Assembly: GCA_963770895.1 (NCBI GenBank)
Contig: CAVYRF010000002.1
Span: 5,248,001-5,312,000, forward strand
Origin: an uncultured Acidobacteriota bacterium
Lineage (GTDB): Bacteria > Acidobacteriota > Thermoanaerobaculia > Multivoradales > UBA5704
Reading direction: 5' to 3'
DNA: 64,000 nt
Each line of letters begins with the position of its first letter. The first letter of the stretch is position 1. The position numbers and the translations under genes are program-made. The notes under the pieces are model-generated. The model saw nothing but the letters and a program-made list of their open reading frames with translations. It ran no database searches and was not told where the DNA came from. Below, in pieces: positions 3,721-19,706 of this stretch.

Positions 3721-4055
3721 GGGCGCCTCCGCTGCGTCTGCAACTGTTCGTGGAAGTCGCGCGCCAGCTCGCCGTTGGTGATCTCGGCCGACCGCAGCAG
3801 CGAATGAATGGCGGGCCAGAGGTCATCGCCCACGACGCACTCGATCGTACCCAGGATGTCTGTTGCCACGTCGAACGGTTTCCGGCCTTCGTGGCGATCG
3901 TCGATGTCCTGCGGTGCCGGCAGTCCGTCGTGGACCTCTTCAAGGAGATCCGTTACGGCCAGGAGTTGGTTGGCGGCGTCGCTGAGGGCGGCCTGTGCCC
4001 TGGCGACCGTCCACGGGATAGGGGAAGAAGAGGTATCTTCGCTACAGCTCGGCAT
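3717..4055 (-). CDS. small helical hypothetical protein (antisense-regulated module copy A)
   Basis: 112-aa ORF with GGAGG RBS, overlapping the radC start; preceded by the conserved hairpin leader. Confidence 0.7.
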   Translation of the reverse strand: MPSCSEDTSSSPIPWTVARAQAALSDAANQLLAVTDLLEEVHDGLPAPQDIDDRHEGRKPFDVATDILGTIECVVGDDLWPAIHSLLRSAEITNGELARDFHEQLQTQRRRP

Positions 4056-4122
4056 CGGGTGTCCTCCGGTGTCGGGTCAGGTCTCGGCGGGAGCGTCCAA
4101 CTCTCGCCGGGGCCGTCTGGTT
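4046..4122 (+). ncRNA. candidate antisense sRNA (SymR-like architecture), copy A
   Basis: -10-like TATCTT at 4034-4039; 14-bp stem 4080-4093/4101-4114 with 7-nt loop, fully paired on the + strand with 3 G.U pairs. Ends are approximate. Confidence 0.5.
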
Positions 4123-4171
4123 AGGAAATTGGGGCGGCACAATGCCGCCCCGCCGTGTATTCAGGGCTTCT

Positions 4172-4783
4172 TGTTGCCGGCTGAGCAGACCCGCTGCTAT
4201 TCGGTGAAGAACGCGTGTCACCGCCGCTGCTTAAATACCGCTGCTGGAGGGCGCCCTCGGCGTCGGCTGGTATTGAACCAGCGGTGGAGGGGTCGAAAGC
4301 GTAGGAACTCTGTCCGAACTGTTCCGCAGACTGGGCAGACTGGCGGCCGCGGTTCGGTATCGGGCGAGAGGAGGCCGGCAGGCTGGGGCGTATTGCGACA
4401 CTGCTCCGTCACGACCGGTCGGCGCTCCGATTGGCGGTACCGGGCTTGGCGCTCTGCATGAAGCAGCCGTCCGCGTGGCGTAGCCTGGTGGCGCCTGTTG
4501 GATGCTCGCTGCTTCTCCCTGCGTGCGGCTCGCGCACACACCTTGCCGCAGTAGATGTTGCCTCGGTCGCACCCCGAGCAGATCGCGACCAATGCGCGAC
4601 ACCTGAGACAGCAGTACAAACGCTGAGCCTTCATGGTAGAGCCAGTCTACCGCCAGCCGCCGGCCCGCCGGTCCACCTTGTCCACCCCCCCGGCGGGGAT
4701 GATGCTGAGGGAACTTCACCACCTCCGATGGCTGAGAACTGCGTTCTTCACCGGATAGCAGCGGGTCTGCGCAACCGCCAACA
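4172..4783. mobile_element. non-autonomous IS21-like element (612 bp) carrying a Zn-finger ORF
   Basis: TG...CA ends; 43-bp terminal inverted repeats with 4 mismatches (tgttgccggctgagcagacccgctgctattcggtgaagaacgc vs rc tgttggcggttgcgcagacccgctgctatccggtgaagaacgc); 5-bp TSD CTTCT at 4167-4171 and 4784-4788. Confidence 0.85.
4218..4634 (-). CDS. Cys-rich Zn-finger protein resembling the accessory ORF upstream of istA in some IS21 elements
   Basis: RLYCCLRCRALVAICSGCDRGNIYCGKVC..RR..Q.T.RGRL.HAERQARYR and a C-terminal CPVCG. Confidence 0.7.
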   Translation of the reverse strand: MKAQRLYCCLRCRALVAICSGCDRGNIYCGKVCARAARREKQRASNRRHQATPRGRLLHAERQARYRQSERRPVVTEQCRNTPQPAGLLSPDTEPRPPVCPVCGTVRTEFLRFRPLHRWFNTSRRRGRPPAAVFKQRR

Positions 4784-5977
4784 CTTCTTGAAGGGGATGA
4801 CCTCCGCGGCCGTGTGGCCGTTGAGAGCGGCGGCGATCTCCGAGGAGATCCGGGCAGCGGCGGCGCGCCGCGGGTCGTCGTCGAGGTGCGCGTAGCGGGC
4901 CGTTGTCGCCGGATGCCGGTGCCCCAGGATCGAGCCGAGCACGGGCAGGCCCAGATTGGCCGCTACGCCCACACTGGCGAAGCTGTGGCGCAGATCGTGG
5001 AGCCGGACATCCTCCAGGCCGGCCCGTTCGCGGATGCGCGCCCAGGGGCGCTGGAGGCCCTGGAAACGGCCTCCAGCGCGGTGACCAGGGATGACATAGG
5101 GGCTGCCCTCGATGCGCAGCGCTGCGGCCAGCACCTCGGCCGCCGCCGGCCCCAGAGGGATCGACTTCTTGCCGGTCTTGCTGTCGGGCAGGTTGAGGGT
5201 GCCCGTCTCCAGGTCAACTTCCTCCCAGCGCAGGTCCAAGATCTCGTCCCGGCGGGCGCCGGTCAGGAGCAACAGCCGGACGGCCAGCACCACCGCGGGG
5301 TCCTCGGAACCCTCGCGCTCCACCGCCGCCAGGGCATCGCCCAGCCGCCGTAGCTCGGCTCCGGTCAGAAACCGCTCGCGTTTGCGTTCGCTGTACCGGC
5401 CGATCCTGGGGCAAGGGTTAGAGTGGAGCGGGCGCAGGCCCCAGGTTTCGGCAAGGTTGAGCATCTTGCTCAGCAGGGCCAGCACCCGGTTGCCCTGGAT
5501 CGGTTTGTCCCGCAGCGAATGGTGCAGGTCGGCGGCTTCCTTCAAGCCGACCGTCGCGACCTTGCGCCGGCCGAGGGCGGGCAGGATGTAGAGCCGCAGC
5601 AGGCGGTCGTCGCCCTCGGTGCTGGAGTGCTTCTTCTTGGGGCCGGCGTGTTGCTCCAGGTACCGGCGGGCGAGGTCGGCTACGGTCGGCGCCGCCACCT
5701 GCGCTGCGTGCTCGGCGGCCGGGTCTTCGCCGCGGGCGACGCGCGCCAAGGTCTGGCGGGCGGCCTCGCGCGCCTGATCGGGAGTGATGGTGCCGTACTC
5801 GCCGAGGGTCAGGCGCCGGGTCTGCCGGTCGCGCATCCATTCGACGATGAACCTCCGGCTGCCGCCGGCCCGGACGCGCAGGACGAAGCCGCGCAGCTCG
5901 GTGTCCCAGACCTTGACCTCACCCTTGGCAGGCATGTCGAGGGAGTCCACAAGGCGCTTGGTGATCTTGGCTCGCAT
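4748..5977 (-). CDS. tyrosine integrase with N-terminal arm-binding domain (element 1); last codons replaced by the inserted mini-element
   Basis: MRAKITKR..WDTELRGF arm domain; TGARRDE, HDLRHSF, LGHR....TARY catalytic motifs. Confidence 0.95.
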   Translation of the reverse strand: MRAKITKRLVDSLDMPAKGEVKVWDTELRGFVLRVRAGGSRRFIVEWMRDRQTRRLTLGEYGTITPDQAREAARQTLARVARGEDPAAEHAAQVAAPTVADLARRYLEQHAGPKKKHSSTEGDDRLLRLYILPALGRRKVATVGLKEAADLHHSLRDKPIQGNRVLALLSKMLNLAETWGLRPLHSNPCPRIGRYSERKRERFLTGAELRRLGDALAAVEREGSEDPAVVLAVRLLLLTGARRDEILDLRWEEVDLETGTLNLPDSKTGKKSIPLGPAAAEVLAAALRIEGSPYVIPGHRAGGRFQGLQRPWARIRERAGLEDVRLHDLRHSFASVGVAANLGLPVLGSILGHRHPATTARYAHLDDDPRRAAAARISSEIAAALNGHTAAEVIPFKKCWRLRRPAAIR

Positions 5978-5984
5978 GGTCGTT

Positions 5985-6020
5985 GGCTGGGCTGTCCTGG
6001 GCTGTCGCTGGGCTGTCGGA
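5985..6020. repeat. tandem TGGGCTGTC direct repeats, probable integrase arm-type binding sites
   Basis: Three copies between the integrase start and the att core; the same array occurs at ~20921-20977 before the second integrase. Confidence 0.6.
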
Positions 6021-6123
6021 GAACAGGATTCAGAGGGTAGCACAGGGAACGCCAGAGTCAAGAAAGCCCGTAGAATAAGGATTTCAGGGATGTGTCGGGA
6101 CTGCCTTGGACCCCGTACATCAA

Positions 6124-6170
6124 GACTGAAAATCACGGTGTCAGCGGTTCAGTTCCGTCCCTGGGCACCA
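6124..6170 (+). other. att site: 3' half of tRNA-Phe(GAA), junction of tandem elements 1 and 2
   Basis: gactGAAaatcacggtgtcagcggttcagttccgtccctgggcaCCA comprises the anticodon loop, T-arm, acceptor 3' strand and CCA; no D-arm or 5' half upstream. Confidence 0.85.
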
Positions 6171-6412
6171 AGTAAACCAAACAAAATAAGCGACTTACGG
6201 CTAGGCGGCCTGATTGTCGTCATGGCAGAAATGCGTCCTGGGGAGCGCCTGGGGAGCAGTAGAATTGGGATTGCGCCGGCCAGGCGCCCTGCCTCTCGGG
6301 GATTGCGCGGGTCCGTCTTGACGCTCCGCAGCGGCCTGGAGGTCGCCTCCCGCCATCGTCCCCAGGAGCCGGGGCTGGCGCCTGGGCCGTGCTGCTTTCG
6401 AGAGGTACCGCT

Positions 6413-6844
6413 ATGCCAGACGGGTCCAAGGGTGCCGGCGGCCGGCCCCGGAAGGAGTTGGACGCGGGAGCTGCCTACAAGCTCGGGCAGCTTGGCTGCA
6501 CCGACGCGGAGATCGCCGCCTTCTTCGGCGTCAGCGATGAGCTGGTGCGCCAGCGCAAGCGAACCGACCCGGAGTTTCTTGGAGCGCTCGAAAAAGGGCG
6601 CGCCACCATGAAACTGTGCCTCCGGCGCAAGCAGCTCAGGATCGCCCTCCGCGGCAACGTGCCGATGCTGATCTGGCTCGGCAAGCAGCTGCTCGGCCAG
6701 TCGGAGCAGGTACAGGACGTGACGCCGCCGCAGCCAAGGGAGGAAGTTGTGCTGCCTGCGCCGCTGTCCCCCGACGAGTACGCCGAAGTCGTCGAACGGC
6801 TGCGCAAGCGCGGTGCACTACCTGGCAGCTCAGAGATCAGCTGA
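6413..6844 (+). CDS. terminase small subunit-like HTH protein
   Basis: GGRPRKELD..A.KL..LGCTDAEIAAFFGVS...F..ALEKGRA...SLRR-like...GNVPMLIWLGKQLLGQSE, a phage TerS-type signature; GAGG RBS. Confidence 0.7.
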   Translation: MPDGSKGAGGRPRKELDAGAAYKLGQLGCTDAEIAAFFGVSDELVRQRKRTDPEFLGALEKGRATMKLCLRRKQLRIALRGNVPMLIWLGKQLLGQSEQVQDVTPPQPREEVVLPAPLSPDEYAEVVERLRKRGALPGSSEIS

Positions 6845-6921
6845 TCTCTTGCCAGGCGCCCAGGAGAGGCGAATCCTTCGGTTGGGGCCTGCGGCCGCTC
6901 GGGATCGTCCAGCTCTGGCGG

Positions 6922-7419
6922 TTATGTCTCGCCCGCCAGCTTCAGCAGCTGAGCCCTCAGCTCCGGCGACAGCCGATAGCCAACCCCGGCCAGCTCGTCC
7001 AAGGCCGGGGCAATCTGGCTGAGCAGCCCATTCCGCCGGGCGGCCAGCAGGACGGCGCCTGTCCCTGCCACCGGCACGCCGCGCGCCTTCGCCAGGGCTC
7101 TGCCGCGCCGGTCATCCATCAAGAGGAAGCGGCAGGCGCGCTGCTCGAACAGCACAATCGCCTCGGCCTCGCCTGGGTCCACTACTCGCTGTAGAACTTC
7201 GATATCGGCGGAAGGCGCCGGCACTTCCTGCACTAACCACCCCGCGGCGAGCGCCGAGCGCGCAGCCTTGGAGCCGGGGCGGTCTGCGTCGACCTGCAGC
7301 TCCTCAAGCACCTTCGGAGGGATCACCACCGTGCCGTAGAGGCTGCGCAGCAGATCGAGCCGACCAGTCCGCGCCAACGCGATGAGCGGCCCTGTATCGG
7401 CAATGATTGCGGTGTTCAA
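6922..7419 (-). CDS. DUF3368 PIN-domain toxin
   Basis: [12 protein letters not shown]...IPPKVLEEL...DPGEAEAI...[10 protein letters not shown]...G. Confidence 0.85.
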
Positions 7420-7751
7420 CGTGCGACTTCGACCTCGCCCGCCAGCTCCTCGGGGTCATACCCGACCACTGGCACGCCCGCCTGGCTGAGAGTTTCCACG
7501 AAGAGCTCTACGGGAAGCTCTGCCATCTTCGCGGCTTGAGCCAAGGTCAACTGGCCGGCTGCGTAGAGCCGGATCGCAAGGGCGCGATGAACCCCGAACG
7601 ACAGCAGGCGGTCGTCGAACGGTACGGCCAGGATCGCCGGCCGGCCATGCTTCGTGATGATCGAGAGCTTGCCTTCCTCAGCGTCGCGCATCAGGTCGCC
7701 ACTCCGGTTGCGCAGGTCGCGGACGGTGAAGACGTCGAAGGGTTCTGCCAT
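7416..7751 (-). CDS. Phd/YefM-UPF0175 fusion antitoxin
   Basis: [17 protein letters not shown]....ITKHGRP followed by ALAIRLY..G.LTL.QAAKMA; overlaps the toxin start. Confidence 0.85.
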
Positions 7752-8255
7752 GAGTTGGATGCTCCTCCAGGCCCTTGTGCCCACAAACTGTAGCACAAGT
7801 ACTGTCCTGCGTAGGCTCGGGGCGCTTGGCTTGGATTCCAGGCGGCCAATGGCCCGCGTGGCAATTAGGGGGGCTGCGCCTCCAACGCTCAGCGCCGCCT
7901 GAACGGCCTCGTGCCGCGATCCTCTCCTTCCGAGGGTGTTGACCTGGCTCAGATGTTTTTTTAACGGGTACCGCTTTGGGAGGCGGATCTAAAGGTCAAT
8001 TCTTCCCCCAACAGTCGAGCTTTCATGAGCGGGATGTGCTGGCAGACAGCTCGCCGGTAGTCTGATCGATTGTGCAGCCATGCTTCCCTCTGGGTGACTT
8101 TGAGTGTTTTTAGATTAGGGGCTTGCCTTAAGCCTCCCGTTGTGTGTCAAATGGTTTGCATTGCAGCAAGGTGAGGCAACCATGCCGGTGTCTCTCCAGG
8201 GAAGCGCAGCGCCAGAGCTGGATAGCCCAGCCTGGCCCGTTATCGGAGCAAAAAG

Positions 8256-8501
8256 ATGCGAGACGACGCCCGGCCGCTTACCGAAGTTCCTTCGAATAGT
8301 TCTCGGTTTCTTCGCCCTCACCAAGTCGAAGCCATTTACGGACTTTCCAAAAAGTTCCTTGCGCACGCGCGGATGCGGGGCGACGGTCCGCAATTCTGCA
8401 AGGCGTCTGGCAAGTTGGTTCTCTATGCCGTCGACGACATCGAGCGGTGGCTGGCCGCCAAGCGTCGCAAGTCCACTTCCGATCCGGGCGTCGTGGAGTG
8501 A
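8256..8501 (+). CDS. AlpA/excisionase-like HTH protein
   Basis: FLRPHQVEAIYGLSKKFLAHARMRGDGPQF.K..GKLVLY..DDIERWL. Confidence 0.8.
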   Translation: MRDDARPLTEVPSNSSRFLRPHQVEAIYGLSKKFLAHARMRGDGPQFCKASGKLVLYAVDDIERWLAAKRRKSTSDPGVVE

Positions 8502-8596
8502 GCTGCGGTGTCCAGGCAGACGAATATGCGCCAGGAGCTGCTTGCCAACCTGGCGGCGGCGGTGCGTGCGCGTGGCGGTCGGCGCGAAGGGCAGGA

Positions 8597-10001
8597 GAGG
8601 TATAACCAGATCTTGTGTTTGAGGTAGGCGAGAAGGCGGCGTACCCTGGGTGTGTTCGAGGCACCCATTCCGCCCCGAGGGGCAGGAGGTACGCCACCAT
8701 GGACGATGGTAACGGAAAGTTGGTCCAGTTCCCAGGCGAGCCGCGCGAATCGGTCTCCGATGTATTGGGGGAGGTTCTGCGGCAGGGCGCGCGGAAGATG
8801 CTCGCCGAGGCGATCGAGGCAGAGGTCGCCGAGTACCTGAAGAGCCATGAGGGGCTGCGCGACGACGCCGGTCACCGAGTGGTGGTGCGCAACGGCCACT
8901 TGCCGGAACGGAAGCTCCAGACGCCGGTGGGCGACATCGCGGTGCAGCAGCCTCGCGTGCGAGACCGCCGCCTGCCTGCCGATCGCGAAGCATTCCAGTC
9001 GTCGATCCTGCCGAAATACCTGCGTCGCACCCGGTCGCTTGAAGAGTTGTTGCCGTGGTTGTACCTCAAAGGCGTGAGCAGCGGCGACTTCAGCGAAGCC
9101 CTGGCGGCGCTGCTTGGCCCGCAGGCGCCGGGGCTCTCGGCCACGACGATTGGCCGCCTGAAAAGCGGCTGGGAGGACGAGTTCAAGGCCTGGGAGGCTC
9201 GCTCGCTGGCAGCCCAGCGCTACGTTTACCTTTGGGCCGACGGCGTGTACTTCAACGTGCGACTGGAAAGCCCTGGAAACAGTCGGCAATGCATCCTGGT
9301 GATCATGGGCGCCACGGCCGAGGGCAAGAAGGAGTTGCTAGGCGTGGCCGATGGGTACCGGGAGAGCGAGCAGTCCTGGCAAGAGCTGCTGCTGGCTTTG
9401 CGATCACGCGGCCTGGTGGTGGATCCGGAGCTGGCCGTAGGCGATGGTGCACTCGGCTTCTGGAAGGCGCTGCCGAAGGTCTACCCGAACACCCGGCCTC
9501 AGCGCTGTTGGGTGCACAAAACGGTCAATGTTCTCAACAAGATGCCCACGAGCAGTCAGGCCAAGGCCAAGTCGATGCTCCACGACATTTGGATGGCGGC
9601 CACTCGCGCCGAGGCCGACCAGGCTTTCGACCTCTTCATCGACATGTTCGGCGCCAAGTACAGCGCGGCGGTGACCTGCCTGCGCAACGACCGGACCGAG
9701 CTGCTGGCGTTCTACAACTTCCCAGCCGAGCATTGGATCCACCTGCGCACGACCAACCCCATCGAATCGACGTTTGCCACGGTCCGCCTGCGCACCGACA
9801 AGACGAAAGGCTGCGGCAGCCGCCTTGCCTGCTTGACGATGGTGTTCAAGCTCGCGATGTCGGCGCAGAAGCGCTGGCGAGCGCTCAACGGCGCTTCATC
9901 GCTACTTGCCGACGTGATCGCGGGGGTGAAATTTGAAAATGGGGTCAAGAAAATTGCCGCCTGATCGCCGGCCCCCCACACACAAGTCTTGACCATACCT
10001 C
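8597..10001 (+). mobile_element. IS256 family insertion sequence
   Basis: Imperfect IRs gaggtataaccagatcttgtgt / rc gaggtatggtcaagacttgtgt; 9-bp TSD AGGGCAGGA at 8588-8596 and 10002-10010. Confidence 0.95.
8699..9964 (+). CDS. IS256 (mutator-type) transposase
   Basis: YVYLWADGVYF, AVGDGALGFW, QRCWVHK, LRTTNPIESTF. Confidence 0.95.
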   Translation: MDDGNGKLVQFPGEPRESVSDVLGEVLRQGARKMLAEAIEAEVAEYLKSHEGLRDDAGHRVVVRNGHLPERKLQTPVGDIAVQQPRVRDRRLPADREAFQSSILPKYLRRTRSLEELLPWLYLKGVSSGDFSEALAALLGPQAPGLSATTIGRLKSGWEDEFKAWEARSLAAQRYVYLWADGVYFNVRLESPGNSRQCILVIMGATAEGKKELLGVADGYRESEQSWQELLLALRSRGLVVDPELAVGDGALGFWKALPKVYPNTRPQRCWVHKTVNVLNKMPTSSQAKAKSMLHDIWMAATRAEADQAFDLFIDMFGAKYSAAVTCLRNDRTELLAFYNFPAEHWIHLRTTNPIESTFATVRLRTDKTKGCGSRLACLTMVFKLAMSAQKRWRALNGASSLLADVIAGVKFENGVKKIAA

Positions 10002-10677
10002 AGGGCAGGAGGTGCGCTTCCTCTGCCCGGAGCACGAAGACCATCGCCCTTCGGCAATGTGGAACCCCGAAAAAGCTGTCTGGTGCTGCCCTGCATGCGG
10101 CGCGAAGGGCGGCGCTCACGACCTCGCCGCGCGGCTTGGCGTCGAGCTCTCTGCCGCGCAGCGGATGCACGCGCCGAACGCGACCACGGTGTATCCCATC
10201 CGCGACTCAGCCGGGCGCCTGGTCGCGGAGCACATCCGCATCGAACGGCCGGGAGGCGAGAAGACCTTCACCTGGCGGCGCGATGGCCGCTCGGGACTGC
10301 AGGGGCTGCGGGTCGCCGAGCTGCCGCTGTACGGCACTGACCGCGTTGGATCGTTCGCCCGTTCCCGACCGGTATTTCTCTGCGAGGGTGAGAAGGCGAC
10401 GGACTGCCTGGTCCGCATCGGCGCCCAGGCGGTTGGTACGGCGACAGGTGCGGGGGCAGTGCCCGCCCCTTCATCCTTGGGCGTGCTCCAAGGAATTGAC
10501 GTGCGGCGAAGTGACCTCGACCCGAGCCATATGGTTACACCAGGAAGGGGGGCGCCAGCCACACGGGACATGCCTCTCCCTCAGCGGCGGCTTGGAGCGA
10601 TGCCATCGAGGAATTGCCATGCATTAATTTGACGCCGAACGCCTGCGCTCCTATTCTGCTCTAGGTTCATTCTATGA

Positions 10678-12381
10678 ATGCCAGGGGATTTCATCGAAAG
10701 TGAGGTGCGCATGTCGGAGGCGGAACTCATTCTCGGGTGGCAAGTCACACCTAACCTAGATCCCAGATATTGGTTTTCGCCGGATGCAATGTGCGGGAAG
10801 CAAGCAGATGCGGATCTTTTCAAGGTTCCCGCAGGCGAAATGGCTGCGCACACAGCGATTATCGCTCAATCGGGATCGGGCAAGTCATTCTTCTTGGGTC
10901 GTATAGTGGAAGAGATTGCCCTCCGCACGCGAGCTCGGTGCCTGATCCTCGATCCCAATGCTGACTTTAGGCGCCTTCACGAGGTGGAAGGTGCCGAGTT
11001 GTGGAGTACTGGCCGCTATACCTCGGCGTCGCGATCCGGCAAGTTGTGCCATGAACCATCGCGCGCCGAATTTGCGAATGCCTGGTCTGAGATCAAGGTT
11101 GAGGTGCTCAGCGCGACTCGATCAAGGGAGGGCGTCGCAACCAAGCCTCTGCGCTTCAGCTGGCCATCCGTTTCCGCCGAATTCCTTGCTGAGGACTTGG
11201 GTCCTGCCCAACGGAGTGAGCTGGAGAATCTGCATGCTTTCGTCAAGATCATATACGACGCCCTGTCTCTCGGCTCGACTGATCACAGAAAAACAGATGA
11301 TTATCTCCGCAAGGCCGAGATGCTGCTGAATCTCGCCATAGCCAATCCAGCGGATTTCGAGACAGCCGTCAAAGACCTAAGTAGGGCCGAATTTCATGAT
11401 GCCTCATCTTTGCAATCTTCTGTCCTATTGCGCTTGGGGCTGTTTCGAACCTCCTCCCTGATGACAAGGCGCCGGTCGATCGATCATTTGGTAAAGGGAG
11501 CATTGGCAGCCGCGCGATATGTAAGCGATGACACGCGGCGGTTTTATTTCGGCAAATTAAGCAGCATCCTGGCCGCGGGGATAATCCAGACCGGAATCAG
11601 CGATGAGGAAGGCGCAAGTGCGACCGAAGCTGATGCCAGGATATCGGTGATAGACTTGCCGTCCATCGCTCACTTATCTACGCGGTTATTGGCCGTAAAC
11701 GCTTGCATAAAGTCTCAATGGGATGCAGCCAGAGCTGCTTGGGATGAAGCATTGCAACACCTCCCCGTCGATGATGCGCGGGTGCCAACCTTCATCGTAG
11801 TTGACGAAGCCCATAACGTTATACCACGCGAGCAGCGCAATCGCGCCGAATACGCACTGCGGGAGCAGTTTCGCACCATAGTAGCAGAGGGCCGCAAATA
11901 TGGCCTGTTTTTGATCCTCGTTAGCCAGCGACCCGACAAGCTGGATCCTTTGATCGTGTCAGAGTGTGAAAACCGCGCAATCATGAAGCTCAGCTCGCGC
12001 AGCGCCTTGGATGTCACCAGGGAAATGCTTGCCCTGGAAGACATTCCGCCCAACGTCCTGGCCAAATGTTTGGAGCTGCCGGTCGGGCGGGTGCTAATGG
12101 TGGGAAGTTGGGCTAAAGACGGTCCTCAATTTCTTTACTCTGCCGCAAGGCGCACAGTAGAGGGTGGCCGCAATCTGCGACGTGAAAAGTGGGCTGTCGC
12201 CCCTGCGCGCCCTTCGCCAGCGACACAGCAACAACTAGCGGCAGCGCCGCAAGAGGTCGAGAGAAAAGCCGCGGAAAGTGGTGCTATTTCGGCCAAGAAG
12301 CCGCCATCGAAGCGGCAAGCGCAAAAAAAGAGGCCGATATCCGCGCGCACTCCCAAGCGCACGCTGTCTAAGTCGTCCTGA
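10678..12381 (+). CDS. HerA/DUF87-like (FtsK-HerA superfamily) ATPase
   Basis: HTAIIAQSGSGKS Walker A, ILDPNADF, FIVVDEAH Walker B, EGRKYGLFLILVSQRP; visibly lower GC than the flanks. The start may be 10711. Confidence 0.85.
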   Translation: MPGDFIESEVRMSEAELILGWQVTPNLDPRYWFSPDAMCGKQADADLFKVPAGEMAAHTAIIAQSGSGKSFFLGRIVEEIALRTRARCLILDPNADFRRLHEVEGAELWSTGRYTSASRSGKLCHEPSRAEFANAWSEIKVEVLSATRSREGVATKPLRFSWPSVSAEFLAEDLGPAQRSELENLHAFVKIIYDALSLGSTDHRKTDDYLRKAEMLLNLAIANPADFETAVKDLSRAEFHDASSLQSSVLLRLGLFRTSSLMTRRRSIDHLVKGALAAARYVSDDTRRFYFGKLSSILAAGIIQTGISDEEGASATEADARISVIDLPSIAHLSTRLLAVNACIKSQWDAARAAWDEALQHLPVDDARVPTFIVVDEAHNVIPREQRNRAEYALREQFRTIVAEGRKYGLFLILVSQRPDKLDPLIVSECENRAIMKLSSRSALDVTREMLALEDIPPNVLAKCLELPVGRVLMVGSWAKDGPQFLYSAARRTVEGGRNLRREKWAVAPARPSPATQQQLAAAPQEVERKAAESGAISAKKPPSKRQAQKKRPISARTPKRTLSKSS

Positions 12382-12525
12382 GTCGCTAAAACATCGATGT
12401 GACGAATGAAAGCGGTAGGGGGGTAGCGGACGATTCGCGGCAGGTGGCGGATCGTGACGTGCCCCCCTGAAACTGGCCAGGCGATAGAGTGAGTCCTCCG
12501 GCAAAGGCAGTGCCTGGAGGAAGCG

Positions 12526-12792
12526 ATGAGGAAGAGTCGATTCACGGAAGAGCAGATCATCCGGGTGTTGAAGGCGGCTGAAGCTGGGGAAAAAGCCACG
12601 GACCTGTGCCGGAAGCACGGCATCAGCGAGCAGACGTTCTACCGTTGGAAGGCCAAGTTTGGCGGTATGGACGTCAGCGAAGCGCGGCGCCTCAAGCAGC
12701 TGGAAGACGAGAACCGGCGCCTGAAGCATGCGGTGGCGGATCTGACCTTGGAGGCGCAGGCGCTGAAGGCGGCGCTGGCAAAAAAATGGTGA
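12526..12792 (+). CDS. IS3 transposase OrfA
   Basis: MRKSRFTEEQII..LK..EAG....DLCRKHGISEQTFYRWKAKFGG. Confidence 0.95.
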   Translation: MRKSRFTEEQIIRVLKAAEAGEKATDLCRKHGISEQTFYRWKAKFGGMDVSEARRLKQLEDENRRLKHAVADLTLEAQALKAALAKKW

Positions 12793-13565
12793 AGCCCGCG
12801 GCCCGGCGCGAGGCAGCCACGTTCTTCCGGGAGGAGTATGGAACCAGCCAGGTGCGTGCCTGCGCAATGGCGAGCCTTCATCGCTCCACGTACGCCTATC
12901 GTAGCCAGGTGACGACAGAAGCTCAGGTCTTGCGCCGGCGGCTGCGCGAGCTTGCCGCAGAGCGGCCGCGGTACGGGTACCGGCGCTTGCATGTGCTTCT
13001 GGTCCGAGAGGGCCATGAGGTGAATCACAAGCGCGTGCACCGGCTCTATCGCGAGGAAGGCTTGATGGTGCGTCGGCGACTGCGCAAGCGTGTTTGCCGA
13101 GAGCAGCGCCAGCCTCTGGCACGAGCGGAGCGGCTGAACCAGTTTTGGTCGATGGATTTCATCGGCGACACCTTGGCCAACGGCAGAACCTTCCGCAGCC
13201 TCAACATCGTCGACCAGTGCAGCCGGGAATGCCTTGCTTTGGAGGTCGACAGCTCGTTGCCGGGCCTTCGGGTGACGCGGGTACTGGACCGTCTGGCCGG
13301 CCAGCGTGGCCTGCCGCAGACCCTGGTCGTGGATAACGGCCCGGAGTTCGCTGGAAAGGCCCTCGACCTCTGGGCTCACCAGAACAAGGTGCATCTCCAC
13401 TTCATCCGGCCTGGGCGGCCGATCGAGAATGCCTTTGTGGAAAGCTTCAACGGCCGTTTTCGGGACGAGTGCCTCAACCAGCACTGGTTCACCAGCCTCG
13501 CCGATGCTCGGGCCAAGATCGAGGCCTGGCGCGACGACTACAACGCCCAACGTCCCCATAGCGCG

Positions 13566-14969
13566 CTAGCAGCCCGTGGTGCAAGCCGGATTCTGACGGT
13601 GGGCCAGATCGCGGGGGGCCAGGGTGAAGCAGGTGATGAGATCGATCCGAGACATCCAGGATTGAAGCGATCTGGCGCAGGAGTCGGGCCGTAGGGCTTC
13701 GAGGAGCCCAAAACCAAGAGAAAGCCAGCGGCGGAGGCGTCCCTGAAGGCCGCGCGGCGTGCCATGGCCGATTCGCTGGCGCATCACCAAGCCGAGGTTG
13801 AAGGCTGCCTCGTGAATCAAGAGGCGCTTGAGGATGTTGGCGTGACCGCGCAGAAAAAGGCGCCGCAGACCGCCGGTTTCGTAGCTATGGGCCATGCTGC
13901 GCTCCACCTTCTCGCAGCGCCAGCGGGACAGCCTCTTGCCGCGATCCCCTCGCATCCGACGATGGTTGGCGTAGGTAGCTTTTTGTTCGGCAATCCGACC
14001 CCGCCACTTCCGGCGCGGTCGCTTGGGTTCCGCGATGTAGCTGCGCAGGCCGAGCTCCTGCATCCCCACCAGCACAGCGCCGCTGTGATAGCCCCGATCG
14101 GCCACGACCTCCCGCAGCACTTGCGGGGACAAAGTGATCGAATCGGGGAGGGCCGCCAGATTCTCCAGCGTTTCGCTCAGGGTCTGCTCGTAGCTCTGCG
14201 TGTCCCCTCGATCCGCCGGCTGGAGGGTCACCGCGACGACCGCTCCGGTCTCCAGATCCACGGCGTGCTCTGCTTTGTGCGCCAGATGGGTCCGGCCATC
14301 TTTCATCTTGGTGATCTTGGCGTCAGGATCGTGCGGGTTCGTCCAATCGTCGTTCGACCCTTTCCCTTTTCGTTTCTTGTCTTTACGCGCCAGCTCCGCA
14401 CGTGTGGGCGTCGCTTGCCCGCTCTCTTGAGCCAGACGCTGGAGAAACTCCTTGTAGCCTTCCCCGGTGTCCCGCCGCACGATGCTCTTCATCGCCGCGT
14501 TGGCTTCCAAGGTCGTAGCGTCGACCCCGATTGTCTGCCCCCGCAGAAGGCCTTCCTGGCCCAAAATCCCCAGGACCCAGGCGAAGACCTCCTGATGCGT
14601 TTCCACGTCGATCAGACGCCGGTTGCGCGAAATCGTCGAATGATCCGGCGGGGCTTCCGACAGGCTCAAACCCAAGAAATCGCGCAGCGTCAGCGAATCC
14701 GACACCCGCCAGGCGATCCCCCGTTCCGAGTTGAGCCCTTCGAAATAGCCGATCAGAAGCAAGCGGAAGTAGGTGCCCGGCGGCAGCGACGGCCGGCCCA
14801 TCCGCTCCGCATAGAAGCCCTGGCACTGTGCCTCCACGAAGCCGTCGAACCCGTGCTGCTCAAGAACCCGGTTCAAGCGTTCGTAGAACGGATGGCCAGG
14901 ACCGCGGGCCAGGTCGCCCGTCGCGATCCACATGTCCCCTTGCCGGCCCTTCTTCTTGCCCATCGCCAT
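13566..14969 (-). CDS. IS1182-like DDE transposase (DUF772 + DDE)
   Basis: HPFYERLN, GRPSLPP..YFRLLLIGYFEG..SER, PDHSTISR, VDATTLEANA, ADRGYHS, VERSMAH. Confidence 0.9.
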   Translation of the reverse strand: MAMGKKKGRQGDMWIATGDLARGPGHPFYERLNRVLEQHGFDGFVEAQCQGFYAERMGRPSLPPGTYFRLLLIGYFEGLNSERGIAWRVSDSLTLRDFLGLSLSEAPPDHSTISRNRRLIDVETHQEVFAWVLGILGQEGLLRGQTIGVDATTLEANAAMKSIVRRDTGEGYKEFLQRLAQESGQATPTRAELARKDKKRKGKGSNDDWTNPHDPDAKITKMKDGRTHLAHKAEHAVDLETGAVVAVTLQPADRGDTQSYEQTLSETLENLAALPDSITLSPQVLREVVADRGYHSGAVLVGMQELGLRSYIAEPKRPRRKWRGRIAEQKATYANHRRMRGDRGKRLSRWRCEKVERSMAHSYETGGLRRLFLRGHANILKRLLIHEAAFNLGLVMRQRIGHGTPRGLQGRLRRWLSLGFGLLEALRPDSCARSLQSWMSRIDLITCFTLAPRDLAHRQNPACTTGC

Positions 14970-15045
14970 TCGGCAATCCTCCGCCAGTGTGACAAGTCTC
15001 TCAGGTGACACGACCCTCGACAACTACTACTTGCACCACGGGCTG
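13570..15045 (-). mobile_element. IS1182-like insertion sequence nested in IS3
   Basis: Perfect 16-bp IRs cagcccgtggtgcaag; CTAG duplicated at 13566-13569 and 15046-15049. Confidence 0.9.
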
Positions 15046-15195
15046 CTAGGTGATCGCACGCCCAGAGAGTTTGCCGTTTTGACCCAAGAGCTGCGAGAGC
15101 CTTCGTCTCTCGCAGCTCCCCCCGCCCCCTTGGCTGGGGCGTCTAACCCGCCGGCGACGACTCACCTTTCAGACTGACCGGTCATTGGGGGCAGG

Positions 15196-16320
15196 TCAAT
15201 GGCTATCGTCCTCGGACGCGAGTTTTCGACGCCCAACTTCAGCTCCTCTTCGGACCGAGGCAATAGTTGTCTCCACGTTACCCATAAAACGATCAAGCTC
15301 AGCACCAACTACCTTCGCTGTCCGAGTCAAGCCTCGTTCCAGCCCCTCCATTGACTTGAGACTCGTCCGCATCGCGCTGATGTTAGGTAGGGCGCCGCGC
15401 GCGGCCTGCTCTACTTGATCTAGAGTCGTCACGAAAGAAAGAAGGGCGTCGCGATCTTGAGCAGATTTTATCCTTCCGTGTGATATCATGAACTCGATGC
15501 TATCCTGAGTGGCCCGAGCAATTGCTTCGTAGTTGTCGTTTGTTGATGACAGCTCTTGACCGTACTGCACCAGCTCTCGACTGTACGCATTAGCGATGAA
15601 CCGAACGCTAGACAGTACTTGTTTTCCTTGGGTCGCCCTAGCAGTATCGATTCGCTTTGCATACTCGCTCGACTTTGTGCCTATTGAAAGCGTTGCAGCA
15701 GTGGATGAACCCAAAGCATTCACCAAGCGCTCGAAGCCCTCCGCAAGCCCTGCCGCATGGTCAAGCCAGCCGGCCTCTCCATCTCCGTCATCGTCGCCGT
15801 CTTCATCGGACGCGCTTTGGGGTTTTAGGGAGGGAGATCGAGGGCGGTTCTGTGGACGCTCGCCAGAGAAGTCGGAAACAGGACTCCCGAATTCCAGTGT
15901 ACCCCGGAACGCTTCCAAAGCTGTTTGCTGAAAGGATTCGCGCGCCCTTTGAATACGCGCAAAATGCGTGTCGTAAATTACGACCCTGTAAGATCGCAAA
16001 TCGAAGGGCAGTTCATCTATATTTTGGGTTAACAGTACGACAGGCGTTCCGAGGCCATGCGCTATACCTAGTTCATAGAAAACGTTGGCGTTGAGGCCTG
16101 TTAGGTCGGCTATAACTAGAGCGCTAGTCTTAATGCGCTGAACTATGTCTCTGAGTATATTGTTCTGGCCATATAGATCGTCGGCACGAGATACCGAGTA
16201 GCCTACCCCTTCGAGGACAGGTAATATAAACTCGCGATACACCTCGTCAAGCTCGGCGTCAAAGGGCATTATTACGAATGCCGCTGGCGCCTCGTTGTCA
16301 TTAGTCATAGTTGGCGTCAT
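15196..16320 (-). CDS. nucleoside 2-deoxyribosyltransferase/TIR-like N-terminal domain fused to a long helical C-terminus; candidate defence effector
   Basis: AFVIMPFD...RADD...I..IK.S.LVIADLTGLNANVFYELGIAHGLG.PVVLL...LPFDL; low GC; the stop codon is supplied by the IS3 end; start uncertain (16308-16368). Confidence 0.75.
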   Translation of the reverse strand: MTPTMTNDNEAPAAFVIMPFDAELDEVYREFILPVLEGVGYSVSRADDLYGQNNILRDIVQRIKTSALVIADLTGLNANVFYELGIAHGLGTPVVLLTQNIDELPFDLRSYRVVIYDTHFARIQRARESFQQTALEAFRGTLEFGSPVSDFSGERPQNRPRSPSLKPQSASDEDGDDDGDGEAGWLDHAAGLAEGFERLVNALGSSTAATLSIGTKSSEYAKRIDTARATQGKQVLSSVRFIANAYSRELVQYGQELSSTNDNYEAIARATQDSIEFMISHGRIKSAQDRDALLSFVTTLDQVEQAARGALPNISAMRTSLKSMEGLERGLTRTAKVVGAELDRFMGNVETTIASVRRGAEVGRRKLASEDDSH

Positions 16321-16563
16321 GAGCTGTTGCTCCGGCACTTCAGGGGCCGCGAGCATGCCTCCTCCCACTCCCTCAACAATCTAATTGTATATGGTAGGTA
16401 CAAACTGATGGAAATTACAATCTCATAACCCAATGGCTATGCAGCTATTTGCGTCGGTCAGCCAGCCCCGTCTTCGACCGCCGGGCCTGCCACCTTCACA
16501 GGCCCGGACGGTTTGACGGTTGAGGATTGGTGACGTTGACGCGGGGGGTGCGGTGGGCTGGTC

Positions 16564-16863
16564 CTACTCGTGCAGCGTGGTCGCCACAATTTCAAGCTGC
16601 CGCCGGAACGGACTCGGCTCCTTGGGCGCCTTGAACACCATGCGGAAGAACTCGGCGGGCGCCATGTCCACCGCTTCTACGATTGCCAGCACTTGCCACA
16701 GCCGCAGGTCGGTCCTGCCGGTTAGAGCGCGCTGCACGTCGCATGTGAAGCCCCGACCCTGAAGGCGGCGGGACATCTCCACCCGACTTACCCCTGCCAA
16801 TCCAACGAGACGACAAAGCGCCTGGCGCGACCGCTCGGCGTCCGGGTGGCGGCCAGTGGTCAT
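16564..16863 (-). CDS. XRE-like HTH protein
   Basis: GVSRVEMSRRL...VQRALTGRTDLRLWQVLAIVEAVDMAPAEFF; start overlaps the upstream gene's stop. Confidence 0.65.
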   Translation of the reverse strand: MTTGRHPDAERSRQALCRLVGLAGVSRVEMSRRLQGRGFTCDVQRALTGRTDLRLWQVLAIVEAVDMAPAEFFRMVFKAPKEPSPFRRQLEIVATTLHE

Positions 16864-17225
16864 GACAGCCTCCCTTCGATCGACTCCGCGATGGCGCCGA
16901 CCTTCCCGGCGAGCTTGCCGGCGAACCGGGCCAGATCGTCGTCCGGCGGCGGGAGCGATGAGGCGCTGTGCGCATCGCCGATCATGGCAAGGTAGCCTTC
17001 GAGATACCTGAGATCGGCAGCGGCGGCGCGCAGCTCGTCGCGGGTCGGAGACTCGGTGAAAGGCGCGCGTGTCGTCTCCAGAGCGTATAGGTACAGCATT
17101 CTGCTGAGACGGCGGATCGCCTTCCGGTCCTTCGCGTTGTCGATGCTGCGCATGGTGGTTTCCCGGATCGAGGCTGCCTCGGTCCAGGTGGGGGGCGGAG
17201 TGGTAGATTTGTGGCGGTTGCGCAT
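16860..17225 (-). CDS. small helical hypothetical protein (antisense-regulated module copy C)
   Basis: 121 aa; paralogous to 19336-19605 (RETT..R.A.R...R M.Y..A...E.RAA.A.LR..EG...LARFAGK). Confidence 0.75.
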   Translation of the reverse strand: MRNRHKSTTPPPTWTEAASIRETTMRSIDNAKDRKAIRRLSRMLYLYALETTRAPFTESPTRDELRAAAADLRYLEGYLAMIGDAHSASSLPPPDDDLARFAGKLAGKVGAIAESIEGRLS

Positions 17226-17287
17226 TGGGCTTGGTCCTTTGCGTGACTAGGCTCCGGTAGGAGTTAGCCGCTCTTGCCGGGGCCGCT
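17216..17287 (+). ncRNA. candidate antisense sRNA, copy C (3' tail cut by the group IIC intron)
   Basis: TGG-TAGATT extended -10-like element at 17201-17209; 14-bp stem 17250-17263/17271-17284 fully paired on the + strand with 3 G.U pairs. Confidence 0.5.
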
Positions 17288-19144
17288 GTGTGCCCAGCAT
17301 GGGCGTGACTTGGAGGTGCAAGTCCTCTGGGGAACCTGGTCGCAGGGACCCCGAGCGAACCGCAAGGCGACCGGCCGCGAGGCCGGCGCTGAAAGAAGCG
17401 GTAGCGAAACCGCGGGTTGACGAACAGAAACCGGATAGGAGGCGGCGCAAGCCGGGGCGAGCGGGCAGCGAACCGCGAAGCTCCTGCGACCAAGGGCGAG
17501 CGCCGTAAATCCGGCAGCCGTGCGGGGAAAGCCACGACCCTTACCTGGGGAGGTCTCGCCTGACGCCTGAAAGGGCGACGCCGCAGGGCGGAGCGAGAAG
17601 TCAGCAGAGGTCATAGTAGCCGGGGAGGCGGGAGGGGAGAGGCGAAGGACCGAACGGGGAGGAGAGAGCAACGACCATGGGTCTCGAAGGTGCACGGCGC
17701 CAGATGACCGGGCAACTGGAACTCCCGTTCGAACCAAGGGGTGAAGCCCCGCGAGGAGAGCGGAGTGGCGAAGCACCGACGGCGAGTCAGGGAGACGAGC
17801 GCTCAGGGACCGACCGCCTAATGGAACAGGTGGTGGAGCGGGGCAACGCGAAAGCGGCGTTGCGGCGAGTGAAGCAGAACCACGGAAGTCCTGGCATCGA
17901 TGGGATGACGGTGGGAGAGCTGTCAGCTCACCTGGTGAAGCAATGGGAAAGTATCCGGGCACAACTCCTGACCGGGACTTACCAGCCGCAGCCGGTGAAG
18001 CGGCAGCCGATTCCAAAGGCGGGAGGAGGAGTCCGGGAGTTGGGGATTCCGACCGTGCTCGACCGTTTCATCCAGCAGTGCATCTTGCAGGTTCTTCAGC
18101 CGCGCTTTGATCCGACTTTCTCTGAGCACAGCTACGGCTTCCGACCTGGGCGGCGAGCGCACGACGCCGTGCGAGCGGCGCAGAAGTTCATCCAGGAAGG
18201 GCGCCGTTGGGTCGTGGACGTGGACCTGGCGAAATTCTTCGACCGGGTAAATCACGATGTGCTCATGAGCAGGCTGGCCCATCGAATCGCGGACAAGCGC
18301 ATGCTGGGACTGATTCGTCGTTACCTTGAGGCCGGAATTCTGGCCGAAGGGGTGACGAAGGAGCGGCACGAGGGGACTCCTCAGGGAGGTCCTCTCAGCC
18401 CGCTACTGGCAAACGTGCTCCTCGACGAAGTGGATCGGGAGCTGGAAAAGCGCGGACACGCCTTCGTGCGTTACGCCGACGACAGCAATGTGTATGTGCG
18501 GTCCCGGCGTGCCGGCGAACGAGTCCTTGGGACTCTTCGGCGGCTCTATTCGCAACTCCGGCTCCAGATCAACGAAGGGAAGAGCGCGGTGGCGCGGCCA
18601 TGGGATCGCAAGTTCCTGGGCTACAGCTTCTGGATAGCCCCCGGACGCGTGATTCGCTGTCGCGTCGCACCCGAAGCTTTGGAGGCGATGAAGACGCGGG
18701 TACGGCACATCACCGGCCGCAGCGAGGGCCGGAGCATCGACTTGGTGGCTGCGAGCCTCCGAGAATATCTGACCGGCTGGAAAGAATACTTCAGTCTGGC
18801 AGATGGCCGGCAAAAGCTCACCAGCATCGACAAGTGGATCCGTCGTCGCCTGCGTATGGTCCAGCTCAAGCAGTGGAAACGAGGTGCCACGACCTACCGA
18901 GAGCTGCGCAGGCGGGGCGTTCCCGAACGCGAAGCCTCCTGGTCGAGTGCCCACGCCCGCAGCTGGTGGAGGACCGCCAAGAACACCGCCCTCAACATGG
19001 CCCTGCCAACGAGCTACTACGACCGACTGGGAATACCCAGGCTTGCCCCGTAACCTCAACTCCTCGAACCGCCGGATGCGGACCCGCATGTCCGGTGGTG
19101 TGGGAGGGGAACGGCGGGGATGACCCGCCGTCCCCTATCCCGAT
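17288..19144 (+). mobile_element. group IIC intron
   Basis: 5' end GTGTGCCCAGCATGGGCG; DV gaaccgccggatgcggacccgcatgtccggtggtgtg; DVI ending ctatcccgat; inserted 3 nt after a stem-loop as expected for class C. Confidence 0.9.
17677..19053 (+). CDS. ltrA: group II intron reverse transcriptase/maturase (no endonuclease domain)
   Basis: LGIPTVLDRFIQ, SYGFRPGR, GTPQGGPLSPLL.N, FVRYADD, X/thumb domain. Confidence 0.95.
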   Translation: MGLEGARRQMTGQLELPFEPRGEAPRGERSGEAPTASQGDERSGTDRLMEQVVERGNAKAALRRVKQNHGSPGIDGMTVGELSAHLVKQWESIRAQLLTGTYQPQPVKRQPIPKAGGGVRELGIPTVLDRFIQQCILQVLQPRFDPTFSEHSYGFRPGRRAHDAVRAAQKFIQEGRRWVVDVDLAKFFDRVNHDVLMSRLAHRIADKRMLGLIRRYLEAGILAEGVTKERHEGTPQGGPLSPLLANVLLDEVDRELEKRGHAFVRYADDSNVYVRSRRAGERVLGTLRRLYSQLRLQINEGKSAVARPWDRKFLGYSFWIAPGRVIRCRVAPEALEAMKTRVRHITGRSEGRSIDLVAASLREYLTGWKEYFSLADGRQKLTSIDKWIRRRLRMVQLKQWKRGATTYRELRRRGVPEREASWSSAHARSWWRTAKNTALNMALPTSYYDRLGIPRLAP

Positions 19145-19199
19145 TCTAGGGAATGGGGGGCGCGATGCCCCCCTCTGTGTCTCTGGACTACTCGACTGC

Positions 19200-19605
19200 G
19201 ATCACCTCTCTGCCTTGTCGCCGGCTCAGGTGGCGACCGGCCGCAGTCGCGCTCGACGGCGGCGACAATTGCACTTACCTGCACGGCCATCTTGCCGGCG
19301 AAACGGGCAAGACGGGCTTCCTGGGGTTCGAGGCACTATTCCTCTGCCGCCTGGCGCATCGAGAGGAAGAACCCCTCGATGAAGCGCAGCTCGGCCAGGG
19401 CGGCGCGCATCTCCTCGTGGCTGGTGGACTCGTCGCCGGGGAACTCGGCCGTCACGATCGCCATGTCGTAGATCATCCGGCCAACCTGGCGCAGCGCCTC
19501 TCGCGATACCGGATCGTCAACGCAGATGAGGGTCGTTTCCCGGAAGGAATCGGCGGCGTTCCAGGGTGGCGGTGGGGGCGGGGTAGACTGGTTGCAGCTC
19601 TGCAT
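19200..19605 (-). pseudogene. paralog of 16860-17225 with an in-frame stop at 19336-19338 (module copy B)
   Basis: After the TAG the same frame continues CLEPQEARLARFAGKMAVQVSAI, matching DDDLARFAGKLAGKVGAI of the intact paralog; left end approximate. Confidence 0.7.
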
Positions 19606-19672
19606 GAGGCTGTTCCTCCTGCTGGGTTAGGCGTCGGTCGGGGCTGTACACCCTGCCCGGCGCCGCTTGTAA
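19596..19672 (+). ncRNA. candidate antisense sRNA, copy B
   Basis: TAGACT at 19584-19589; stem 19630-19643/19651-19664 (13/14 pairs, 2 G.U on the + strand), 7-nt loop. Confidence 0.5.
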
Positions 19673-19706
19673 GGAAATGGAGCGGCACGATACCGCCCCG
19701 CTTGCT

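Follow-up and report, generated by a model that had tools for sequence, protein, structure and literature searches.

A probable structured antisense RNA element at the 5' ends of small genes in Acidobacteriota

The window analyzed here is a stretch of 64,000 nucleotides (positions 5248001-5312000 of contig CAVYRF010000002.1) from the genome of an uncultured Acidobacteriota bacterium (8.16 Mb, about 70.7% G+C). Three small genes on its minus strand, starting at 4055, 17225 and 19605, each carry across their 5' end a compact element made up of a -10-like box and two adjoining hairpins, and the fold of the hairpins belongs to the strand opposite the gene. Judged by comparison of many copies, this is most likely a structured RNA element that is widespread in Acidobacteriota and previously undescribed, and it can be placed with a known kind of regulator, the short antisense RNA that covers a translation start.

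An earlier note on this DNA had pointed to the three genes, and they hold up as real open reading frames (ORFs) with coding-type base composition (G+C at third codon positions, GC3, of 0.78-0.87). The copies of the element are numbered along the window, with copy 1 at about 4034-4151, copy 2 at about 17204-19173 and copy 3 at about 19584-19699, and the plus strand is the one antisense to the small genes. HP1 denotes the first hairpin, H2 the 14-bp stem of the earlier note, and T1 a further GC hairpin, which the note had also marked and which is present at each of its three places (Table 1).

Table 1. Features of the three copies and of the genes beside them (positions within the window).
Feature	Position	Strand	Evidence
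Copy 1 -10-like box, TATCTT	4034..4039	+	Sequence; aligned with invariant T/A/T columns in 62 copies
Copy 2 -10-like box, TAGATT	17204..17209	+	Sequence, model alignment
Copy 3 -10-like box, TAGACT	19584..19589	+	Sequence, model alignment
Copy 1 HP1, from predicted +1, with CAU (anti-start) and CCUCC (anti-Shine-Dalgarno)	4046..4078	+	Folds, model alignment, covariation
Copy 2 HP1	17216..17248	+	Folds, model alignment
Copy 3 HP1, one U.U mismatch	19596..19628	+	Folds, model alignment
Copy 1 H2, 14 bp, 7-nt loop, 3 G.U	4080..4114	+	Folds, covariation, H2 model
Copy 2 H2, 14/14 pairs, 3 G.U	17250..17284	+	Folds, model alignment
Copy 3 H2, 13/14 pairs, 2 G.U and one U.C	19630..19664	+	Folds, model alignment
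Copy 1 U-enriched tail GUCUGGUUAGGA, possible RNA 3' end	4115..4126	+	Model alignment, composition
Copy 3 tail GCUUGUAAGGAA	19665..19676	+	Model alignment
Copy 1 T1, palindromic GC hairpin, then AAUUUCC on minus strand	4131..4151	.	Sequence, folds
Copy 2 T1, parted from H2 by intron	19155..19173	.	Sequence
Copy 3 T1, terminator-like on minus strand after integrase gene	19679..19699	.	Terminator scan
Small helical protein, family A, 112 aa (copy 1)	3717..4055	-	ORF, GC3, word search, structure model
Small helical protein, family B, 121 aa (copy 2)	16860..17225	-	ORF, GC3, profile search, structure model
Family B gene shortened by in-frame TAG, 89 aa (copy 3)	19336..19605	-	Comparison with paralogues
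RadC-like JAB protein, start overlaps small-gene stop (copy 1)	2998..3720	-	Pfam RadC, E 4.2e-33
XRE-type helix-turn-helix (HTH) protein, 152 aa, directly after radC	2537..2995	-	HTH_3, E 1.5e-10
99-aa gene, overlaps family B stop (ATGA, copy 2), faintly HTH-like	16564..16863	-	E 0.032
P4-type tyrosine integrase upstream of copy 1	4748..6136	-	Pfam, profile search
P4-type tyrosine integrase directly upstream of copy 3	19707..21020	-	Pfam, profile search
Group II intron, reverse transcriptase (RT) ORF 17677-19053	17288..19144	+	Rfam, RVT_1 and GIIM, empty site in paralogue

Fold, strand and placement of the element

Comparison of the copies at the sequence level establishes the two-hairpin fold, the strand to which it belongs, the box with its spacing, and a placement found exclusively at the starts of small genes. 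The earlier note gave H2 14/14, 14/14 and 13/14 pairs around a 7-nt loop, with G.U wobbles that become C.A mismatches on the mRNA strand. Pairing by hand bears these counts out. In the folds H2 forms stems of 14-15 bp on the plus strand and does much worse on the minus strand, and the three regions reach -70.2, -46.8 and -57.0 kcal/mol on the plus strand against -48.3, -21.7 and -48.4 kcal/mol on the minus strand. HP1 is an additional conserved hairpin, absent from that note, which lies between the box and H2. It starts 7 nt past the box, and the complements of the start codon and of the Shine-Dalgarno sequence both fall within it.

The comparative evidence comes from two alignments. Independently of any model, 25 distinct sites, of which 11 are in this genome and 14 in others, were aligned with MAFFT; RNAalifold and single-sequence folds gave HP1 and H2, and a covariance model, R1, was then built. 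The main structural set consists of 68 covariance-model hits, realigned to the model, which represent 62 distinct copies. Over these copies 94.3% of 1480 cells are paired, and 18 of the 24 pairs (228 cells) show compensatory changes on both sides, the kind of change for which a covariance model across homologues had been proposed as a check. None of 500 shuffles reached any of five measures, and registers slid out of place pair at no more than 54.9%. Because the 62-copy alignment was fitted to the model, it leans towards the structure; the MAFFT alignment agrees in direction, with 89.7% of cells paired, 15 of 24 pairs changed on both sides, no match to the observed values in 500 shuffles, and at most 52.3% pairing in slid registers.

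The paired columns of the 62 copies hold 321 G.U cells against 28 A.C cells, arguing that the fold belongs to the antisense strand, since in the sense orientation every one of the 321 would become a C.A mismatch. The core of two hairpins has a mean minimum free energy of -44.6 kcal/mol in the antisense orientation versus -28.1 kcal/mol in the sense orientation, and the antisense form is the more stable in 62/62 copies. A separate model built from H2 alone scores its reverse-strand hits at about 21 bits versus 56. The G.U excess and the stability difference thus sustain the proposal that the structured RNA is the antisense one.

The box is located inside codons 6-8 of the small gene. In each copy of the window 21 nt separate the first base of the hexamer from the final base of the start-codon complement, as had been noticed for the three copies. 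Across the 62 copies the hexamer counts are T62 A62 G51 A53 C49 T62 (mostly TAGACT), a G stands two bases before the hexamer in 53, and the pairing of HP1 opens, 7 nt past the box, with a purine in 61. Counted from the A of the ATG, the box begins at a distance of 16 nt in 58 copies and of 19 nt in 4. The hexamer that the note had read from three sites is shared, as TAnnnT, by all 62 copies. The pattern is that of a sigma-70-type -10 element (T1, A2, T6, and a purine start 6-8 nt downstream). Promoters with a -10 element only are common in high-G+C bacteria.

Constraint on the box can be read within the coding sequence itself. The base opposite its invariant A is a third codon position, and it is T in 62/62 copies even though the encoded residue varies (TCT 49, TGT 4, GAT 2, CCT 2, GGT 2, AGT 1, CTT 1, CAT 1). 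In 1174 long ORFs of this genome, used as the codon-usage reference, T-ending codons make up 4.7%, and TCT accounts for 1.6% of Ser codons. A third position that is fixed as a rare T while the codon around it varies argues for selection on the DNA rather than on the protein. By eye, the pattern NAN-NNT-ANN occupies codons 6-8 in 14/14 motif-bearing genes of this genome and in 0/11 paralogues or fragments that are without the RNA motif, some of whose starts are uncertain.

The module had been described as a three-copy arrangement, and this proved too narrow; it is instead a family with 14 copies in this genome. Searching with the three proteins (tblastn) gave 25 loci here. At 14 of them the hairpin occupies the corresponding position and is in every case more stable on the antisense strand, and R1 finds 14 sites, all at the 5' ends of such genes. 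The H2-only model, run on the whole 8.16 Mb, returns exactly the same 14 sites at E <= 1.3e-6, and its next hit is at E 0.007. H2 is therefore no general repeat or common type of terminator. A loose regular expression for the hairpin was useless as a detector, with 1090 matches in this genome of about 70% G+C. As the note had recommended, the model was searched over Acidobacteriota genomes: of 151 genomes in the same order, 64 have R1 sites, about 435 in all (150 matches listed and 285 more), and R1 also has sites in 3 of 150 genomes sampled across the rest of the phylum at E <= 1e-5. A search for related loci with one protein gave two, both in metagenome-assembled genomes of uncultured Acidobacteriota. 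The element always overlaps, in antisense, the ribosome-binding site and start codon.

The hairpins match no described family in Rfam, whose antisense RNA models were part of the comparison. A scan of the window with Rfam 15 at gathering thresholds gave group II intron hits only, permissive scans at two sites gave sub-threshold noise of at most 20.3 bits, and the best hit in the genome to the radC motif (RF01754) scored 27.6 bits against a cut-off of 40, at an unrelated place. The element is not described in the literature consulted on radC RNA motifs and on antisense RNAs and genomic islands in Acidobacteria.

The 8 nt that follow H2 are 46% T over the 62 copies (consensus GCUUGGUU) in a genome of about 70% G+C, and a third hairpin of -12 kcal/mol or better occurs within about 5-20 nt of H2 in 50 of 61 copies, with nearly equal stability on both strands and, in some copies, a U-rich stretch on the antisense strand. 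T1 of copy 1 probably terminates the upstream gene, and it may also provide the antisense RNA with a second stop. A conserved CCT(G/A)(A/G)CC after H2 (sense strand) was considered as the stop codon of an upstream small ORF, and this was rejected because CTTGCC variants occur at the same place. An integron attC site was rejected by eye, the stem being too short and a GTTRRRY-like core having no matching inverse core. At five loci lacking an integrase (L027, L026, L029, L046 and L041), a sense-strand hairpin upstream of H2, located after a conserved ...CTGTAG or ...GCTAG, often has two overlapping and mutually exclusive pairings, for example GGTCCTCCC...GGGGAGGACC versus GGGGAGGACCGCTCCTCCCC.

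Small proteins, islands and introns

The element precedes genes of different families. Among the ORFs downstream of 61 distinct RNA copies, 50 belong to family B, 3 to family A and 8 to neither; three of the last group make up a third family and one is marginal to family A. Family B is large, with 902 cluster representatives (50% identity) at E <= 0.001, 520 at 1e-10 and 38 at 1e-30 in a profile search, and it is present in 31 of 41 related genomes, this one counted; family A gave 18 matches by word search. A relationship between A and B is not supported beyond the first 15 residues, which are those constrained by the RNA element: hhalign gives a probability of 28%, and this comes from the N-terminal peptide. 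In copy 3, similarity to the full-length paralogues runs on in the same frame past the TAG, which sits where the paralogues have a Ser codon. Among about 150 family B matches in 41 genomes, one in-frame TAG occurs in 6 and one TGA in 4. At L030:1857-2225 and L033:504-935 another family B-like gene stands immediately behind the first; it lacks the RNA element and the QST N-terminus.

AlphaFold models of both families are helical; the family B model has four helices and a mean pLDDT (model confidence) of 82.9, and the family A model has a mean pLDDT of 74.5. Searches against Pfam, PHROGs, NCBIfam and PADLOC yielded no match to the small proteins. In a Pfam scan of 14 family B members none showed a domain belonging to the family itself, and one long family B entry carries an XRE HTH as well. 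Foldseek against PDB gave no match at E <= 0.001, a wide fold search with VIA-align returned generic helical hairpins only (Z <= 9.0), and a protein atlas search had no usable match. The three window proteins have no Pfam match to SymE_toxin, and their all-helical models are not of the AbrB fold, in agreement with the note's view that they are not SymE. A true SymE_toxin gene (74 aa, PF08845, E 4.8e-11) does occur on the same contig outside the window, at L088:3967-4188, about 540 nt beyond another family B copy and on the opposite strand.

The setting is one of mobile islands. The note had both operons of copies 1 and 2 ending in an XRE-HTH gene; this is right for the gene after radC, but the 99-aa gene after copy 2 resembles an HTH protein only faintly, with E 0.032 in one scan and nothing at E 0.01 in another. 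Downstream genes are not one family, since RadC is found at 4 of 36 loci, an XRE HTH at 1 of 36, and varied genes or no hit at the rest. A P4-type integrase lies directly upstream of only 10 of 60 copies by profile search, with varied genes or nothing recognizable elsewhere; two other approaches to the upstream side were discarded, as the ORFs chosen there proved for the most part to be spurious frames of high-G+C DNA and tblastx clustering was inflated by composition. No relaxase or rolling-circle Rep was found in Pfam scans of the window and ten other loci. The copies in this genome have insertion sequences, toxin-antitoxin genes and defense-type genes around them.

Within the window, the complete integrase gene upstream of copy 1 ends at 4748, and the minus-strand stretch 4162-4747, between it and T1, ends like the 3' end of the copy 3 integrase gene (...CAAGAAGCCCTGA); it is probably an integrase 3' remnant left by tandem islands. 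Copy 2 lies right after copy 3, with the group II intron between them. Downstream of copy 2, a 390-aa gene (15196-16368, minus strand) matches a PADLOC TIR effector model at E 2.1e-15 and has a weak nucleoside 2-deoxyribosyltransferase fold, and further on are a HerA-like ATPase (10678-12381) and a CHC2 zinc-finger protein (10012-10632), a region that by its domains looks like defense-type cargo. A cluster of insertion sequences lies within 8615-15023, between the two islands (a Mutator-family transposase at 8615-9964, an IS3-type pair at 12526-13694 and a DDE_Tnp_1 transposase at 13566-15023). Two minus-strand regions resemble type II toxin-antitoxin loci: 1294-2349, with a BrnT toxin (1547-1912) and an 88-aa neighbor as a pair and a DUF433 protein, and 6922-7796, with a DUF3368/PIN-like gene and a UPF0175/Phd-like gene.

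The group II intron of copy 2 was placed correctly by the note, directly after the stem-loop: its GUGUG 5' end lies 3 nt past H2. Rfam identifies domains D1-D4 at 17371-17650 and D5-D6 at 19067-19144, and the ORF has RVT_1 and GIIM only, with no endonuclease domain. A 94%-identical paralogue has an uninterrupted site, which sets the 3' end of the intron at 19144. The same intron occupies the same place in a 95%-identical paralogue, and these are the only two copies of it in the genome, so they may reflect one event that was later duplicated. The intron separates the copy 2 tail from T1 and has the orientation of the proposed antisense RNA. Ribozyme domains, an endonuclease-free RT-maturase and insertion just after a stem-loop are what is expected of a class C group II intron. 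Introns of this kind recognize DNA stem-loops and need transcription across the insertion site. The orientation along the proposed RNA fits class C behavior by analogy, with the class itself a candidate assignment.

Domains V-VI of a second group II intron lie at 21098-21173 (minus strand, 59.3 bits), 78 nt upstream of the copy 3 integrase gene and in the same direction; the ORF beside them (21261-21713) has no RT domain. At L085, which holds another module copy in this genome, an intron RT likewise lies just upstream of an integrase.

Proposed action and alternatives

The element probably acts, with a likelihood put roughly at 0.7, as a cis-antisense RNA of 80-120 nt that occludes the translation start of the small gene. 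Transcription would begin on the strand opposite the gene, at the purine 7 nt downstream of the -10-only promoter in codons 6-8, and the RNA would fold into HP1, which carries the complement of the start codon and Shine-Dalgarno sequence, and H2, the long GC stem with its U-enriched tail. Its 3' end may lie after H2, for an RNA of about 80 nt, or at T1, for one of about 120 nt. Such an RNA would be the exact complement of the small-gene mRNA over its 5' leader, ribosome-binding site and first codons, and by pairing with it would block ribosome entry and probably expose the duplex to RNase III. The small helical protein, and with it the operon that its gene leads, would thereby stay silent. This course of events is inferred from the geometry and from how RNAs such as FinP and SymR behave. 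From copy to copy the stems and loops vary but the fold does not, which suggests that each RNA controls only its own gene. The core of the earlier note, a short structured antisense RNA from a promoter in the first codons that covers the ribosome-binding site and start, is thereby favored by the box, the synonymous site, the covariation, the G.U excess and the purine. The specific placement at small-gene starts, the T-rich tail, the group II intron oriented along the proposed RNA and the precedents of SymR and FinP count on the same side.

Several observations weigh against this interpretation. The transcript, its ends and its strand are deduced from sequence; the pair counts over 62 copies rest on the model-fitted alignment, and related copies are not independent of each other. 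On the side of the promoter, no -35 element was found, matches to TTGACA at 15-19 nt spacing being no better than in shuffles, and a simple E. coli-type sigma-70 scan calls no promoter at the scanned sites. On the side of the target, no sense-mRNA promoter was found between T1 and the start codon, and no function could be assigned to the small proteins from Pfam, PHROGs, NCBIfam, PADLOC or fold searches. At the 3' end, H2 has the stem that an antisense terminator would need but no canonical U-tract: the tail, 46% U overall, never has 5 of 8 in the scanned copies, it is A-rich in some copies, and the scan calls no terminator in those examined. Finally, hairpins that tolerate G.T pairs would look alike in single-stranded DNA.

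One alternative is a longer antisense transcript, in which the box would still drive transcription but RNA polymerase would continue through T1 into the upstream gene, in some copies the integrase, HP1 and H2 would serve as a 5' stabilizer, and the target would be the upstream gene itself or the effect transcriptional interference. Besides the missing U-tract, the third hairpin beyond H2, in some copies with its antisense U-rich stretch, would suit such a transcript, and the two copies with an intron right after H2 would need read-through. Yet the upstream gene is an integrase in a minority of copies and otherwise varied, and what the element is consistently paired with is the small gene downstream; HP1 contains the conserved anti-Shine-Dalgarno and anti-start sequences, and T1 is equally stable on both strands, as an ordinary terminator would be. 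The longer transcript is on balance improbable, although it survives better than the other alternatives.

A somewhat poorer case can be made for hairpins that act as single-stranded DNA, in transfer, replication priming or strand-specific recombination, with the box as a protein-binding or nicking motif. DNA hairpins tolerate G.T pairs, and strand asymmetry alone therefore cannot separate RNA from single-stranded DNA. The element resides on mobile islands, adjoining integrases or at island borders, and one group II intron of the kind that recognizes DNA stem-loops chose H2. The same doubt was voiced about the STAXI motif by Weinberg et al. in 2010 (PMC2864571). This use of the hairpins would leave unexplained why precisely TAnnnT is invariant, why a purine stands 7 nt beyond it where the pairing of HP1 begins, and why the element always lies antisense over a ribosome-binding site and start codon. 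The Pfam scans of the window and ten other loci, moreover, gave no relaxase or rolling-circle Rep, and tyrosine integrases of the kind present here act on duplex DNA. That the hairpins are instead sense-strand features, a tandem terminator or attenuator of the upstream gene plus a leader structure of the small-gene mRNA, is very hard to maintain, for although T1 is terminator-like on that strand and the sense fold still reaches its mean of -28.1 kcal/mol, this would turn 321 cells into C.A mismatches against 28 the other way, choose the less stable strand in every copy, and leave the box and the synonymous-site constraint in the coding region without a role.

If the antisense RNA is accepted, its wider role can be considered. 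The box, hairpins and first eight codons precede at least three protein families, and in this sense behave as a portable 5' cassette, found on integrase-linked and other islands together with RadC, XRE regulators and defense-type genes. A series of different proteins behind one RNA element fits a general translational lock better than a single toxin family; a toxin-antitoxin role for the small proteins is possible by analogy. A bolder proposal, rather doubtful as a whole, takes two forms. The cassette could be a portable antisense lock (promoter, hairpins and eight codons moving together) joined to at least three unrelated families at the start of island operons as an element-specific switch, in the manner of FinP alleles of F-like plasmids, or it could be the RNA antitoxin of a new type I toxin-antitoxin class, in which helical toxins of about 120 aa guard defense cargo such as the TIR-domain gene by copy 2.

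To our knowledge, regulatory RNAs are almost unexplored in Acidobacteriota, a dominant soil phylum. With hundreds of members, the present element qualifies as a candidate RNA family, and the comparative support for it is unusually clean, including a promoter read from synonymous-site selection. The element offers a handle on how islands in these bacteria might keep their entry operons silent, and it marks a protein family of about 900 clusters (50% identity) as apparently under tight control. The covariance model can be used now for annotating these loci and island borders.

Comparison with known systems

Mobile elements can encode short antisense RNAs, with element-specific loops, that lie over the ribosome-binding site of a key gene; Sar/ant of phage P22 and the plasmid countertranscript RNAs CopA and RNAI are examples. 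The proposed RNA resembles them in kind, whereas sequences, targets and hosts are unrelated, and Rfam gives no match here.

The radC motif (RF01754) and STAXI are alike in being conserved structured elements near radC, integrase, anti-restriction and DNA-handling genes of mobile DNA (PMC2864571). The radC motif is classed there as a probable cis-regulatory RNA (PMC2864571), and its model has no match at these loci. Unlike both, the present fold lies on the antisense strand and has its own promoter box.

Another parallel is SymR/SymE, a type I toxin-antitoxin pair of E. coli. The promoter of symR lies within the symE ORF, and silent changes in its -10 sequence removed it (PMC1891008). The shared features are an antisense promoter in the 5' end of the ORF, an RNA that covers the ribosome-binding site and start (predicted in the present case), and a target of about 110 aa rather than a tiny membrane peptide (PMC1891008). 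SymE, however, has the AbrB fold, whereas the proteins here are all-helical with no SymE_toxin match, and here the RNA element stands before at least three families of protein.

FinP, the antisense RNA of traJ in F-like plasmids, has two stem-loops in 79 nt, with allele-specific loops. The layout is alike in the two hairpins, the short spacer, the 3' tail and the anti-Shine-Dalgarno sequence in the first hairpin, read in the present element from its sequence. FinP pairs with the traJ 5' untranslated region and blocks translation (PMC3105414), and it is likewise a small cis-antisense RNA of a mobile element, complementary to the 5' leader of the first regulatory gene and to its ribosome-binding site (PMC3105414). 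The differences are that the present element has no Rfam match above threshold, occurs in a different host phylum, targets unrelated small helical proteins and has its promoter inside the coding region. With no model match in Rfam 15 and with proteins that are not SymE, the module is not a member of either the FinP/traJ or the SymR/symE family, but it shares the layout of both.

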